DNA from: Sphingomonas sp.
Lineage (GTDB): Bacteria; Pseudomonadota; Alphaproteobacteria; Sphingomonadales; Sphingomonadaceae
Assembly (NCBI RefSeq): GCF_019635455.1
Contig: NZ_JAHBZJ010000009.1
Location: forward strand, 98,349-162,348
Direction of reading: 5' to 3'
Length of the DNA: 64,000 bases
Below are positions 56,175 to 61,235 of the stretch, piece after piece. The first letter of the stretch is position 1, and every line of letters starts with the position of its first letter. Made by a program: the position numbers and the translations under genes. Under the pieces are notes generated by a model. That model worked only from the letters and a program-made list of their open reading frames with translations. It was not told where the DNA came from and made no database searches.

Positions 56175-56249
56175 GGGCGCGTAGCTCAGTGGTAGAGCAC
56201 TGTGTTCACACCGCAGGGGTCGCTGGTTCAATCCCAGCCGCGCCCACCA
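56175..56249 (+). tRNA. tRNA-Val (anticodon CAC)
   Basis: GGGCGCG/CGCGCCC acceptor stem plus ACCA, AGCTCAGTGGTAGAGC D arm, CTGTG-ttCACac-CGCAG anticodon arm, GGTTCAATCC T arm; 75 nt. Confidence 0.97.
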
Positions 56250-56354
56250 TCTAAAGCCGGGCTATCCGGTCATTTTTCGGTCTCCCCGTTGAATGACAGG
56301 AAGCCCGGCTCCGATGCCAGTCCGGTGCAACGCGCCTGGCATTCGGGAGTCGAT

Positions 56355-56920
56355 CTACCTGATGATCCCTTCCCACACGGCGGCGACAGCGGGGAAGTCC
56401 TCCCCGAATCGCATAGGTTGCGGTGGTGTCGCCCCGGGGGGGGGGGGGCATGAAGCCCGGCACCTCACATTTCGGCGCGCCGCGGCGGCGGCAAACGGGG
56501 CGAGGCTGTGCCGCAGCAGGTAGGGCATCCGTTCGCGCGTTGTCGGCAGCTTCAGCGCGACGAGCATCGCGGTCCATGACGAATCGACGTCTTGGACGGG
56601 GCGGCCGTAATAGTTGGACCAGCCAGCCACGAGACGCGCGCTGATCAGGCTCCAGCTGGTCATATGAAGCCCATTCTTCGGTCAGCCACCGGTCGAGCAA
56701 CGGTAGGATGGGCAAAACCGGTCGAAACATCTCGTCGTGCTGGTGAAGCGCAAGAACGCGACGCACGGATCATTCTCGGGAAAGCCGTTGCGGGCGAAGG
56801 CGTCGCCGGCTTCAATGAAATCCACCATGTGCTTGAGCCCGCGCCGCGATGGTGTCGGCCGAGCTTTGCAGATCGCCAGGCTCGAGGCGATAGTCGGCGA
56901 TTGCGTCCAGCACCCGCAGA
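56355..56920 (-). pseudogene. Fragmented tyrosine recombinase/integrase
   Basis: Segments in shifting frames: DAIADYRLE..DTIAAR / LKHMVDFIE / FRPVLPILPLLDRWL / NYYGRPVQDVDSSW...PYLLRHSLA (HxxR-like, Y in place of H) / RRGAPKCEVPGFM..TTATYA (catalytic Tyr region). At least three frameshifts, a G13 tract and no intact N-terminus. Confidence 0.75.
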
Positions 56921-57281
56921 GCAGATCGCGGCGATTGCCGAGCGCATCCGCGCCGATGCGTCAGTCCGCACGATGAGCCTGGAAACGCGGGTCGATCGCA
57001 AGCCGATGTTCGATGCACGGATCAGGGAATCGCTCGCGCTGGTCCACGCCGAAATCGCCTATGGCCGCTGGCGCGCCTCGCTCGGCGTGTTCACGGCGCC
57101 GGTGCTGGAGAGATCGTCGATGACCGGGGTATCGATCGTCGCGAAGCGCTATCGCCTGGGCGTCAACCGGGCGCGACGGCTGTTGATCGACGCGCTCGAC
57201 AGCTGGCTCAGCATGCTGCGCGACGCCCAGCGCAGCGTCGGCCGCGTCGGGCTGGATGAAGCGCACGCCCGCCTGAATTGA
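56913..57281 (+). pseudogene. Probably 5'-truncated phage-like hypothetical gene
   Basis: Coding-like frame AEQIAAIAERIRADASVRTMSLETRVD...YGRWRASL...AKRYRLGVNRARRLLIDALDSW starts exactly where the integrase remnant ends; the internal ATG at 56973 has no SD. Confidence 0.5.
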
Positions 57282-57302
57282 CCGGGGGCGTGCGCCTCGT
57301 CT

Positions 57303-58559
57303 TCAGCTGATCGTTCCGAATGCCTTCCATGTCGTTGGAGCTGCGCTGACGCAGACCCACCCGATCGGCTGGCCCGAGCTGGGCGCGGTGTTGGTGACGA
57401 GATCACCGACGGCCCAAGTTTCCGATGTCGGCGGCGCGCTGTCGAACACCTCGACAACGCCACCTTGCCTAAGCCGCATGCGATCTTCGCCATTCCAGCG
57501 GATGATCGCCTTGTGGATGCCGAAATCGGCCAGGTTTGCGGCGATCGGCGAGCCACCTGGCGCGGTCTGGATGAACACTTCGTTGGTCACCAACGTACCC
57601 GCCGTCGGGACGACCGTATAGATCGTGCCGCTGGAGCTGTCGGTGAACGTGGTATCCTGAAGCCGTATGGTGTGCAGGTCGAGCAATGCGCCATCCAGAC
57701 GAAGCACGTAGCAGTCGGCGTCACCCGAAATATCGATGTTGTTCCCGACGCCGTGGACCTCGCCAATCCGCATCGAGGCGCAATTGAACAAGGTGATGAG
57801 ATTGAGCTGACCGGTCATCGCCGACGGATCGCAGCTCTCAAAATGCAGATAGTCGATCTTACCCGACGAGCTCTCGATATACAGCCATTCCTTCTGGAGG
57901 TGATCGCCTATCAGGTTGGTGATAAGCAGCCCGACGGTCGCACGGAACCGGTGTCCCTTTGATTCGGGTTGCTCGAGGTTCTCTGGCTGTAGTGCGTAAA
58001 CGTTGCGAATGGCGAGATTGGTGTTGCCGCCGTTCGCGGCGTCGCAATCGATGTCGAGACCCCAGTTTGAACAGCCATAAGCGGTTACATTCGCGATCTC
58101 ACCGTCGAAAACGAAGCTGCCAGTTTCGGGCGGATTGCCGATGCCGGTGTTCGCGTCCCGGATGGTAAGCGGTCCGGCGATCAGGAAGTTGTAGCTGTAG
58201 GAATTGGCGGCGGAGAGCTTGATCCCGATCGCGCCGGTCTGTTCATGATCTTGCTGGGTCAGATAACACAGCAAGCCGGGTCCATGGATCGACCAGCCGT
58301 TGTTCTGACTGGTTTTGCTCACTTCGATGATTGCGATATCGTCCGTGTCCATCCGGATCGTCGCGCCGTTGACCTCGAACCTGACGCCGCTGCCCAAGAT
58401 CAGGGTGTCGGTTATTCGGTAGACCGCACCGCAAGCCAGCGTGACTGTGCCGCCGCCGCGACCATGGATGAAGTCAATCGCCTGCTGCACCGCAGCCGTA
58501 TCATCGGCGATGCCATCGCCGACGGCGCCGTAATCATAGGGAGACGCAAATTCCTGCAT
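57303..58559 (-). CDS. Right-handed beta-helix (pectate-lyase-superfamily / tailspike-like) protein, 418 aa
   Basis: SD GGAGG; N-terminal SPYDYGAVGDGIADDTAAVQQAID..GGGTVTL; Asn/Ile-rich beta-coil middle; C-terminal APPTSETWAVGDLVTNTAPSSGQPIGWVCV; no signal peptide; intact frame. Confidence 0.8.
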   Translation of the reverse strand: MQEFASPYDYGAVGDGIADDTAAVQQAIDFIHGRGGGTVTLACGAVYRITDTLILGSGVRFEVNGATIRMDTDDIAIIEVSKTSQNNGWSIHGPGLLCYLTQQDHEQTGAIGIKLSAANSYSYNFLIAGPLTIRDANTGIGNPPETGSFVFDGEIANVTAYGCSNWGLDIDCDAANGGNTNLAIRNVYALQPENLEQPESKGHRFRATVGLLITNLIGDHLQKEWLYIESSSGKIDYLHFESCDPSAMTGQLNLITLFNCASMRIGEVHGVGNNIDISGDADCYVLRLDGALLDLHTIRLQDTTFTDSSSGTIYTVVPTAGTLVTNEVFIQTAPGGSPIAANLADFGIHKAIIRWNGEDRMRLRQGGVVEVFDSAPPTSETWAVGDLVTNTAPSSGQPIGWVCVSAAPTTWKAFGTIS

Positions 58560-58727
58560 ATGCTGGTGTCCTCCAACTTGGCTCACGCCATGGTCTCGCT
58601 GCGATAGGGCAGCGCGCCCGCCCGCCATCACGACGCGCGATATGATCCTGCCGACGGCGGCTCGCCGAGGCTAGGCCGTTCAGCGTGCGGTCACGACGAC
58701 GAGTCCTTGCCGCGCCCACCATCTTTG

Positions 58728-58759
58728 AGGGGCGGGGTTTCCACGGAAATCCCGCCCCT
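58728..58759 (+). terminator. Hairpin just after attR (probably the displaced original tRNA-Val terminator)
   Basis: AGGGGCGGGGTTTC-cacg-GAAATCCCGCCCCT followed by T. Confidence 0.6.
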
Positions 58760-58845
58760 TGTCATATGCGCGTCATCTCTACGCTTATCGCGGAGCGAAT
58801 CGCGCCGGAGCGTCCGGCGCGGCCCTTGAGCCGAAGGTCGTTCCG

Positions 58846-59346
58846 ATGCGCATGCTGCTTGTCGTTCCCGCGTTGCTTTCCCTCCTCACCGCCTGCGGCC
58901 AGCAGGCGCCTCAGGCCGCGCAGGGTGGCAACACCGCACAGCCCGCCACCGCTGTCGCCGAAACGCCCTCGGCCGACGCGATGGCCGCGAAGCGGCAGGT
59001 CACGCGCTATTTCGAGAGGATCGCGGCGCGCGACTTTGCGCGCGCGCACGCCTTCTGGGCCGATGGGGGCAAGAGTTCGGGCGGTTCGGTCGCCGACCTG
59101 AAGCGCGCGTTCGAACCCTATGCGAAATATGCCGGGACCGCGGGCGATCCGACCGAGGTGAAGGTGAGCGGCGATACCGCCTATATCATCGTCCCGGCGA
59201 CCGCGGAGGCGACGATCCGCAAGACCGGGGTGATGCGCGATCTGTCCGGCATGGTCTATCTCAAGCGTTCGGTCGCGCCGAAGGGCGGGGATGCGGCCGC
59301 CGGCGACTGGAGGATCTGGGCCGTCGATCTGCGCCGCGCGCATTAA
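58846..59346 (+). CDS. Hypothetical lipoprotein
   Basis: Lipobox LLSLLTA-C; mature domain QVTRYFERIAARDFARAHAFWADGG...YIIVPA. Confidence 0.75.
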   Translation: MRMLLVVPALLSLLTACGQQAPQAAQGGNTAQPATAVAETPSADAMAAKRQVTRYFERIAARDFARAHAFWADGGKSSGGSVADLKRAFEPYAKYAGTAGDPTEVKVSGDTAYIIVPATAEATIRKTGVMRDLSGMVYLKRSVAPKGGDAAAGDWRIWAVDLRRAH

Positions 59347-59417: not shown

Positions 59418-59549
59418 CAATCCATCATCGCGGAGTCATCGAAGAATCACAGCTGACCCCTAGTCGGCGCTCGTCAGCGACGGGCGGCTCCGGCACGCCG
59501 CACGTTGCGGAGCTTCTGTTTGCCGGGGCGATGTCAAAAGGGGATATCC

Positions 59550-61235
59550 ATGAAAACCGTTCGTAACATCCTGCTGGCCGGCTGTTCGGCCGCAGTGCTC
59601 ACCGCTTGCAACGGCGCGTCGGACGTCGCTTCGCCGGGCGCCGGCACGGTGAACGTCAACATCTCGAACCCGGCACCGACCCCGACGCCCACGCCCGCGC
59701 CGACCAGCTCGCTCGTCACCCCGGCGACCGGCTGCCCGACGATCGCCGACCCGCAGGGTCTGGCCGATGGCGGCACGATCACCGGCCCGACCGGCACCTA
59801 TCGCATCTGCACCCTGCCCGCGCGCTTCGTGCGCAGCGTGACGCTGCCCAAGATTTCGGGCCTTCTGTATCAGCTCGCCGGTCGCACCGACGTCGGCTAC
59901 GACAACGGCCCGACCGCGCTCAGCTCGACCAACACCCGCACCGTGACCGATCCGTCAGGCGCGACGATCACGCTGACCGCCGATTCGAACGTCACGCTGA
60001 CGATCCAGCCGGGCGTGATCATCTATGCCAACACCGGCGTCGCCTGGCTGAACGTCAACCGCGGCAACAAGATCCAGGCCGCCGGCACCGCCAGCGCGCC
60101 GATCATCTTTACCAGCCGCGACAACATCCTGGGCCTCAACACCGACAATTCGTCGGGCCAGTGGGGCGGCGTCGTGCTTTCGGGCCGTGCGCCGATCACC
60201 GACTGCGCCGCGAGCAGCGCGACGCCGGGTACGGTCGCCTGTGAGCGCCAGACCGAAGGCGCCGTGGACCCCGCGCTGTACGGCGGTGCCACCGCCACCG
60301 ACAACAGCGGCACGCTCAGCTTCGTGCAGATCCGCTATTCGGGCTATGTGCTGTCGGCGAACAGCGAGCTTCAGTCGCTGACCACCCAGGGCGTCGGTTC
60401 GGGGACCACGCTCGATCATATCCAGACGTTCAACAGCTCGGACGACGGCGCCGAATTCTTCGGCGGCCGCGTCAACATGAAATATTACATCTCGGTCGGC
60501 GCCGAGGACGATAATCTGGATACCGACACCGGCGTGAAGGCCAATTTCCAGTATGTGATCGCGGTTCAGCGCAACGGCGCGACCCCGGCGATCGCCGACG
60601 CGATGATCGAGGCCGACTCGGACAATGGCGTCGATGGCGACAATCCGCGCCAGAATGTGTTCCTGTCGAACTTCACCTTCATCGACCGGGTTGCGGGTAA
60701 CTCCGACGTCGCCTCCATCCTGTTGCGCGGCGGCACCGACTATACGCTGGTGAACGGCGTGATGCTCAACACCGTGACCAACCCGTGCCTGCGCATCAGC
60801 CGCGCGCAGACCGCCTCGACCACGCAGAATGCGGCGATCGACGAATATGGCGCCCCGCAATTCCGTTCGGTGGTGTTCAACGGGTGCGGCAGCCAGCCCT
60901 TCGTCGGCGCGAACAGCGTCACCGACGCGCAGGTTTCGGCGATCTTCGGTTCGGGTAGCAACAACAACAATGTCAACTACACGCCGACCCTCACCAGCCT
61001 GTTCGTGAACGGTGCGAACGAGACCGCGGTCACCGCGTTCAACGCCGCGACGTTCAACGGCCAGTCGTTCAACGGCACCACGCTGACGCCGACCGGCTTC
61101 TTTGACACGACGACCTATATCGGCGCGGTCAAGGACGCCAACGACAACTGGTACAAGGGCTGGACCTGCAACAGCGGCACCGCCAGCTTTGGGACGGGCA
61201 ATACGGGTCTTTGCACCTCGCTCCCGACCACCTGA
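59550..61235 (+). CDS. Beta-helix lipoprotein (ElpS-like, phosphate-starvation type)
   Basis: Lipobox AVLTA-C; PTPTP linker; WGGVVLSGRAP, DNSGTLSFVQIRYSG, SSDDGAEFFGGRVN, EDDNLDTDTG repeats; Asn/Thr-rich. Confidence 0.8.
   Translation: MKTVRNILLAGCSAAVLTACNGASDVASPGAGTVNVNISNPAPTPTPTPAPTSSLVTPATGCPTIADPQGLADGGTITGPTGTYRICTLPARFVRSVTLPKISGLLYQLAGRTDVGYDNGPTALSSTNTRTVTDPSGATITLTADSNVTLTIQPGVIIYANTGVAWLNVNRGNKIQAAGTASAPIIFTSRDNILGLNTDNSSGQWGGVVLSGRAPITDCAASSATPGTVACERQTEGAVDPALYGGATATDNSGTLSFVQIRYSGYVLSANSELQSLTTQGVGSGTTLDHIQTFNSSDDGAEFFGGRVNMKYYISVGAEDDNLDTDTGVKANFQYVIAVQRNGATPAIADAMIEADSDNGVDGDNPRQNVFLSNFTFIDRVAGNSDVASILLRGGTDYTLVNGVMLNTVTNPCLRISRAQTASTTQNAAIDEYGAPQFRSVVFNGCGSQPFVGANSVTDAQVSAIFGSGSNNNNVNYTPTLTSLFVNGANETAVTAFNAATFNGQSFNGTTLTPTGFFDTTTYIGAVKDANDNWYKGWTCNSGTASFGTGNTGLCTSLPTT

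Follow-up and report, generated by a model that had tools for sequence, protein, structure and literature searches.

Defective ('grounded') prophages residing at tRNA genes, and the domestication of their parts by bacteria, are of a known kind (PMC6379469, PMC8987985). Such cryptic elements share with the locus described here the duplicated tRNA 3' end on their flanks, a dead integrase gene beside the tRNA, the deletion of most genes and the survival of a few. This locus is an islet located at the tRNA-Val(CAC) gene of Sphingomonas sp., within a 64,000-nucleotide stretch of contig NZ_JAHBZJ010000009.1 (positions 98,349 to 162,348) that is referred to as the window and whose own coordinates are used throughout. 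It differs from cryptic prophages in its extreme reduction, as 2.47 kilobases (kb) are left of ~42 kb and a single gene is intact; the islet is a well-known kind of remnant, unusual only in how little remains. We are almost certain that it represents the remnant, bounded by attachment (att) sites, of a temperate phage integrating at tRNA genes. For the best explanation as a whole, i.e. a remnant which decayed, became immobile and retained a phage accessory gene through selection, our confidence is only slightly better than even. The features of the islet are, in order of position:

56175-56249, + strand: tRNA-Val(CAC), intact, the single tRNA found by ARAGORN in this region and, by genome-wide ARAGORN, the genome's sole gene for the CAC isoacceptor (Rfam tRNA, 68 bits).
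56237-56252, + strand: attL core, the left copy of a direct repeat of 16 base pairs (bp), consisting of the tRNA 3' end and TCT.
56256-56279, + strand: weak hairpin with a T-run (P' arm), borne by the element, directly after the tRNA and overlapping the complement of the integrase 3' end.
56262-56732, - strand: integrase pseudogene, C-terminal piece, codons ~298-449 and the stop codon.
56733-56806: 74 nucleotides (nt) without a match, where the relatives have ~440 nt more of the integrase gene.
56807-56908, - strand: integrase pseudogene, N-proximal piece, codons ~80-114, located by tblastn.
56910-57281, + strand: phage gene that has lost its 5' part, 124 of 228 codons being left at the 3' end, with homologues in prophages of genomes G069 and G110.
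57252-57308: strong stem-loop between two convergent stop codons.
57303-58559, - strand: intact gene of an anchorless tailspike-like right-handed beta-helix protein of 418 amino acids (aa; pectate-lyase superfamily; putative polysaccharide depolymerase).
58560-58703: spacer of 144 nt from the gene start to attR, with no similarity to a P arm and no sigma-70-like promoter.
58569-58574, - strand: ribosome-binding site GGAGGA, 9 nt before the ATG, as read from the sequence.
58704-58724, + strand: attR, 21 tRNA-like nt, of which the last 16 (58709-58724) are the right copy of the repeat.
58727-58760, + strand: the tRNA gene's own terminator hairpin, displaced, recognized by folding and by comparison with 20 relatives.

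The two copies of the repeat are exact, with the 16-mer GCCGCGCCCACCATCT present at both 56237-56252 and 58709-58724 at a spacing of 2,472 bp. When up to two mismatches were allowed the window contained two matches, namely these same two sites (0.2 expected), and no other copy of the 16-mer was found in the entire genome (3,148,386 bp in 20 contigs). The exact 16-bp repeat of the tRNA 3' end, which an initial annotation of this DNA had noted, is thus confirmed as a unique pair in the 3.15-Mb genome. The first five nucleotides of attR (TCCTT) correspond to the T-arm of tRNA-Val(GAC), unlike the CAC type. To the left of the 21 nt of attR no tRNA-like sequence was detected, the alignment score being below the mean of shuffled sequences, and a longer attR, as would be expected from the 46-47-bp repeats of intact relatives of the phage, was rejected on this score. 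Directly past the right repeat lies the hairpin at 58727-58760, which has a 15-bp stem and a folding energy of -29.4 kcal/mol (z-score -4.5). The hairpin that now follows the tRNA (56256-56279) reaches -7.5 kcal/mol and is not significant alone; the TATCCGGTCATTTT motif that it contains is kept in the intact phage relatives.

The configuration of the unoccupied site was defined by comparing the lon-hupB-tRNA-Val(CAC) locus across 20 same-genus genomes. By reading of the loci, a GC-rich hairpin, mostly with a T-run, follows the tRNA within 12 nt in ~17 of these 20 relatives, and in several of them the order ...CCACCATCT, then T-rich bases, then hairpin is the same as that of the right junction in the window. 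A second copy (at least 12 nt) of the tRNA end within 8 kb was present in none of the 20, so that no relative without the cargo gene showed both repeats, and no integrase was found at tRNA-Val(CAC) in any of them, the integrase family using tRNA-Val(GAC) there. As the relatives have a single copy of the repeat and the hairpin directly after the tRNA, the 2,472 bp must have been inserted between the tRNA and its terminator. Empty sites with one att copy and an adjoining hairpin therefore do occur at tRNA-Val(CAC) in the relatives, and the position of the hairpin in these genomes agrees with the earlier proposal that the native terminator was displaced to beyond the right repeat.

Islet DNA matched 59 of 400 same-genus genomes, and at the six matching loci that were examined a 449-aa open reading frame (ORF) abuts tRNA-Val(GAC). 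One such intact homologue (L047:10128-11477) was assigned to the integrase family phrog_1 (E 5e-16) and scored 21.6 bits with PF00589, below the cut-off of 27.1. A PF00589 scan of the whole genome carrying the islet (E up to 10) returned six integrases, the remnant not being among them, and neither Pfam nor PHROGs gave a match for the ORFs 56251-56766, 56355-56663, 56660-57001 and 56592-57281; the remnant was seen because homologues from relatives were used after the PF00589 scan had missed it. Mapping by tblastn and nucleotide alignment to the six intact 449-aa homologues showed that ~42% of the integrase remains and ~58% of its codons are gone. Codons 1 to ~80 are absent, and between the two remaining pieces the relatives have 536 nt vs 97 nt in the window, a net loss of ~440 bp. 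The C-terminal piece contains three frameshifts (+1 near 56617, -1 near 56491 and +4 near 56405), an in-frame TAG at 56355-56357 and a homopolymer (a G run at 56436-56448, i.e. C13 on the coding strand) which adds three bases and replaces a conserved Gly-His; the length of this 13-base run may be an assembly error. The reading frame that carries the catalytic residues is thus broken by three frameshifts, one stop codon and the loss of Gly-His. The 3' end of the pseudogene faces the tRNA with its stop codon 10 nt from the repeat, and both this stop codon and the TATCCGGTCATTTT motif adjoin the tRNA end in exactly the arrangement of the intact relatives. The shattered integrase pointing at the tRNA, which had been recognized from the letters alone, is in full agreement with these alignments.

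The truncated phage-like ORF noted earlier next to the integrase proved to be the C-terminal 124 codons of a 228-aa prophage gene, being 81% identical to the G069 homologue in nucleotides and 77% in amino acids. Its homologues in G069 and G110 lie ~2 kb upstream of the terS, terL and portal genes, and a further homologue is present in the prophage of G078. Two indels, -1 at 57111/57112 and -2 at 57132/57133, are located 21 nt apart and scramble seven codons. The listed 229-aa ORF at 56592-57281 is a composite, its first half running antisense over the integrase remnant. The stem-loop at 57252-57308 (-37 kcal/mol; z-scores -4.8 and -5.4) uses the last 25 nt of the truncated ORF itself as its left arm; as the homologues in G069 and G110 lack the right arm, the structure was probably created at a deletion junction.

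Full-length relatives of the element were found in genomes G341, G212 and G078, where the 3' part of tRNA-Val(GAC) is repeated 41,367, 43,845 and 42,845 bp away, respectively, as 46-47-bp repeats. Their integrases are placed at the tRNA-proximal end, and terminase and portal genes lie inside, so that the once-large element postulated in the initial annotation now has relatives of 41-44 kb. This phage family is common in the genus, and its integrase normally targets tRNA-Val(GAC). In G078 the integrase (-) is followed by the homologue of the truncated ORF (+) and then by terS, terL and portal (+), in the same orientation as in the window, and since this arrangement matches that of the window the G078 prophage can serve as a model of the ancestor. 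All three prophages resemble the islet in the family of their integrases (35-43% identity in amino acids over local tblastn alignments of what is left of the C-terminal part, ~70% in nucleotides), in the integrase stop codon abutting the tRNA end, in the shared P'-arm motif and in having accessory genes that face inward at attR, namely GmrSD_N and HEPN genes in G078 and an SRAP-like gene in G341; the G078 prophage shares in addition the family and equal orientation of the truncated ORF. They differ from it in their target, tRNA-Val(GAC) vs the paralogous tRNA-Val(CAC) here, in the length of their repeats, 46-47 bp vs 16 bp here, in their P arm, which is not conserved here, and in that none carries the beta-helix gene. 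In the 42.8-kb element of G078 we also observed a second integrase (L069:2422-6150 in G078:C52; 411 aa, phrog_1 E 3e-42) along with the GmrSD_N and HEPN pair near attR, by which this element may combine a prophage with a defence island.

These comparisons establish that a ~42-kb temperate phage was inserted into the 3' end of tRNA-Val(CAC). The crossover took place inside the 16 bp common to the phage site and the tRNA, leaving an intact tRNA whose terminator came to lie 2,472 bp farther off, and the GAC-type TCCTT at attR fits a phage site adapted to GAC that recombined with the paralogous CAC gene. During subsequent decay at least three deletions, along with small indels, removed ~40 kb and killed the integrase, the order of these events being our reconstruction.

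The initial annotation had further suggested that a related integrase could still excise the islet in trans through its intact att sites. The ends of the islet share only the 16-bp core, vs the 46-47-bp repeats of the intact relatives. The three full-length relatives have a conserved P arm, which is unrecognizable beside the right repeat, the 144-nt spacer showing no similarity to it. No further gene of this integrase family was detected in the genome, nor were other genes of the related prophages found elsewhere in it. With no integrase of the family left, a core of 16 bp and no recognizable P arm, the suggestion that a related integrase could excise the islet has to be considered unsupported, and the stub is very probably immobile; a superinfecting relative may nevertheless bring about its excision.

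The long uninterrupted gene of lower GC content that had been noted in the islet was confirmed at 57303-58559. Its GC content is 0.59, and its GC content at third codon positions (GC3) is 0.745, vs 0.84-0.88 in neighbouring host genes and an overall GC content of 0.668 for the genome. AlphaFold, run with a 52-sequence alignment, predicted a right-handed beta-helix starting from residue 9 (predicted local distance difference test score, pLDDT, 96.8; predicted template modelling score, pTM, 0.91), and the residues that are invariant or nearly so among the 52 family members are all present in the 418-aa protein, E241 and D219 being acidic residues that the whole family shares. PHROG tail-spike families match its residues 2-90 at profile positions ~100-260, and a C-terminal domain of the tail-fibre type was found as well. 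Precomputed PF12708 matches exist for the homologues P0003 and P0005. The best viral structural match was a 656-aa pectate-lyase-superfamily protein of Caudovirales (E 6e-28, template modelling score 0.77, 31% identity); Foldseek matches in the PDB were generic beta-helix enzymes and tailspikes (PfbA, AlgE4, HK620 and RbmB), and the structural neighbours in the Atlas include a capsule-depolymerase cluster.

The protein resembles PF12708 tailspikes and depolymerases (HK620 tailspike, PDB 2vji; A0A6J5M1A3 of an uncultured Caudovirales phage) in the right-handed parallel beta-helix, in the conserved N-terminal D-[YF]-G-A-V-G-D-G motif and in the small C-terminal domain shared with tail-fibre PHROGs. 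It differs from them in having no N-terminal virion-binding domain, in a Pfam score below the cut-off and in being encoded alone, outside a virion gene cluster. Most of 42 representatives of the family (E up to 1e-30) have 45-270 extra N-terminal residues that look like virion-binding domains, and a remnant of such an anchor was found neither upstream of the gene nor anywhere in the genome. P0002 (417 aa) and P0003 (419 aa), which at 67-69% and 65% identity, respectively, are the closest homologues, share the MQEFASP start with the window protein, and as they have the same length and start, the missing anchor is not the result of truncation in situ. The prediction is thus of a putative polysaccharide depolymerase, corresponding to the body of a phage tailspike without its N-terminal virion anchor. 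Host matrix enzymes such as the polysaccharide lyase RbmB of Vibrio cholerae (PDB 9ozd) and alginate epimerases/lyases (AlgE4, 2pyg) are alike in fold and size (Foldseek E 1e-5 to 6e-8); these are free-standing enzymes that act on the cell's own exopolysaccharide, as the domestication of a tailspike body would predict. The likeness is at the level of the fold, with 10-16% identity, and those enzymes are exported, whereas the protein encoded here has no recognizable signal peptide.

The gene points inward from attR, the late genes running in the + direction, and so takes the slot that the full-length relatives use for accessory or defence genes. It has its own ribosome-binding site, a hairpin after its stop codon and a deviant GC3, which might suit a moron (lysogenic-conversion) gene, and no promoter-like site was found for it. 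P0002 and P0003 are encoded on metagenome contigs directly after genes for portal, DUF6127 and prohead protease, and host genes follow them. Of two longer cousins, one of 512 aa is flanked by metabolic genes and one of 529 aa belongs to a phage-like contig. As a separate observation, in the metagenomic loci L055:1-2370 and L053:2-1714 the closest homologues follow the portal C-terminal end, DUF6127 and a complete S78 prohead protease, at the place where a capsid gene would be expected; these loci may be a second kind of phage or gene transfer agent (GTA) remnant that kept the same gene, or else a split cluster.

Selection on the surviving gene is argued for by its contrast with the adjacent remnants. 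Five frameshifting indels were counted in the 945 nt of neighbouring remnant vs none in the 1,257 nt of the gene, where ~6.6 would be expected; by our own arithmetic the Poisson probability of finding none is ~0.001, or ~0.005 if paired indels are taken as one event, on the presumption that all pieces are equally old. The deletions end no more than 21 nt from the stop codon of the gene and 144 nt from its start, and spared the ribosome-binding site. The gene also retains every residue that is invariant in its family. The ratio of non-synonymous to synonymous substitution rates (dN/dS) amounts to 0.19-0.20 when the gene is compared with P0002 or P0003, and to 0.25 for P0002 vs P0003. A parsimony count of non-synonymous to synonymous changes by lineage gave 0.44 for the window branch vs 0.38 and 0.18 for the homologues, a weak and saturation-biased measure in which no obvious relaxation is apparent.

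A number of observations weigh against selection on behalf of the host, in addition to the equal age that the Poisson argument presumes. The dN/dS values of the family mostly reflect life in phages. No relative at least 90% identical was found among ~15 billion proteins, and selection after the death of the prophage is for this reason unmeasurable. Full-length homologues were found in none of the 400 same-genus species genomes, in which the DNA of the islet interior gave matches only at the level of motifs, and a narrow-alignment profile search of 185,579 reference species likewise returned motif-level matches only; the published domestication argument rests on vertical conservation across hosts. 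Three DNA sequencing runs yielded one 208-nt contig and spurious matches of 18-25 nt. A homologue of the beta-helix gene is also missing from the three full-length relatives. The 418-aa protein matches PF12708 over residues 9-60 with 23.8 bits, below the cut-off of 27. No sigma-70-like promoter was found upstream of the gene, and no signal peptide was found on its product, which leaves the access of the protein to polysaccharide unexplained. Finally, the GC3 of the gene (0.745) departs from that of the truncated ORF (0.839) and the nearest relatives of the two pieces also differ in source, by which the gene may come from a later phage.

Several of these same points favour the strongest competing explanation, according to which the beta-helix gene owes its intactness solely to being young and neutral. 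It would be either the attR-proximal part of a second phage that arrived later at the same att core or the survivor of a very recent large deletion, would not be under selection in the host and would in time decay as well. The departure in GC3 would fit a separate arrival, as would the nearest relatives of the gene being metagenome contigs where the other pieces match prophages of the genus; so would the lack of the gene in all intact relatives of the integrase and its uniqueness to this genome among the 400, and neither a promoter-like site nor a signal peptide was found. On the other hand, additional events would be required, i.e. a second integration and then the deletion of the middle att site and ~40 kb, stopping no more than 21 nt from the stop codon. 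Furthermore, two other lineages retain the anchorless form, 417-419 aa long and starting alike, at a dN/dS of 0.25, indicating a working gene elsewhere, and the homologues show the same GC3 deficit relative to their own flanks (0.77-0.79 vs 0.86-0.92), so that a low GC content need not mean recent arrival. We regard this explanation as a serious candidate of rather low probability.

A spare receptor-binding module, with which incoming related phages or a phage-like particle would recombine or whose product they would use in trans, and which would be maintained by this phage traffic and not by a benefit to the host, is an improbable alternative. Tailspike bodies are modular, most family members having exchangeable N-terminal anchors, and P0002 and P0003 are encoded directly behind portal, DUF6127 and prohead protease genes. 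The product encoded here has no anchor, however, no remnant of an adaptor or anchor was found upstream or elsewhere in the genome, and no related phage genes were found elsewhere in it. Likewise, the genome is devoid of an S78 protease or HK97-type capsid gene as far as the genome-wide search could show, and its RcGTA-like cluster is broken. A role of the gene for a gene transfer agent in this strain was rejected for the same reasons, the cluster being broken and no capsid or protease gene having been found.

The RcGTA-like cluster itself (L062:8262-16087; G000:C12, ~373.2-381.1 kb) is located outside the window and ~7 kb from tRNA-Val(TAC), and is in a decayed state. A terminase large subunit gene is followed there by TANGO2-like and spermine-synthase-like host genes, a 481-aa ORF joins the N-terminus of a portal protein to the end of a tail-sheath-like TIM barrel and to DUF2460, and g13-like and g15-like (Rcc01698_C) genes come after this ORF.

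A chance or local-duplication repeat around ordinary chromosomal DNA or some other island, for which one could invoke that short GC-rich repeats are common and that the repeat search returned many pairs of 12-16 nt in the region, is effectively refuted. The exact 16-mer pair has no further copy in 3.15 Mb and coincides with the 3' end of the tRNA, the integrase remnant adjoins it just as in six intact relatives, the islet contains two more phage-derived pieces, and at the empty sites of the relatives the tRNA is followed by the hairpin and the repeat is present once.

Among these explanations, it appears the most likely that the gene had stood alone as an accessory gene in the phage already, and that it would then have been kept by selection in the host. 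On selection itself we consider the balance to be even, and domestication of the gene to be plausible. Of what the initial annotation had proposed on this point, the contrast between an intact cargo gene and its decayed surroundings stands (P ~0.001-0.005 if all pieces are equally old), and support from the genus is wanting, with no homologue found in the 400 genomes and no close relative. Bobay et al. (PNAS, 2014) are said to have linked defective prophages with the domestication of their parts. The likely role of the product would be to bind or cut surface or extracellular polysaccharide, for instance in exopolysaccharide turnover or in the destruction of a phage receptor.

The islet represents a clean and fully mapped case of prophage shrinkage by deletion, in which every junction could be placed against intact relatives, and in which integration used a paralogous tRNA with no more than 16 bp in common with the phage site. 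Its main present yield is annotation, i.e. of a pseudogenized integrase, a gene fragment, an intact depolymerase-like gene and a displaced tRNA terminator. If the selection suggested above holds true, the islet would be a simple setting in which to ask how a free tailspike body benefits a cell, be it through exopolysaccharide turnover, biofilm release or phage exclusion. It is conceivable, but in our judgement doubtful, that the anchorless proteins of ~418 aa with the MQEFASP start form a small phage-derived family of polysaccharide enzymes which sphingomonad-like alphaproteobacteria have repeatedly kept as the last working gene at decaying phage or GTA-like loci. The settings that can be invoked for such repeated keeping are the tRNA-Val stub, the two metagenomic post-protease loci and the 512-aa cousin amid metabolic genes; if true, a tailspike body would have been recurrently exapted as a host enzyme for exopolysaccharide remodelling or for the destruction of phage receptors.

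Variation at this site extends to other sequences as well. Just outside attR, the window carries at 58846-59346 a lipoprotein gene with the lipobox LLTAC and a weak SnoaL/DUF4440-like match, no homologue of which was found in the tRNA-Val loci of the 20 relatives. In G005, G009 and G021 (loci L014, L020 and L024) the usual hairpin is missing after tRNA-Val(CAC), and in G005 the homologue of the window's 576-aa gene (59505-61235) is inverted and 3.4 kb away; these three loci may have undergone rearrangements or insertions of other kinds at this site. A homologue of the 576-aa gene lies beyond the tRNA in 15 of the 20 relatives, and as its distance from the tRNA ranges from 0.2 to 6 kb among them, the site is variable beyond the islet.

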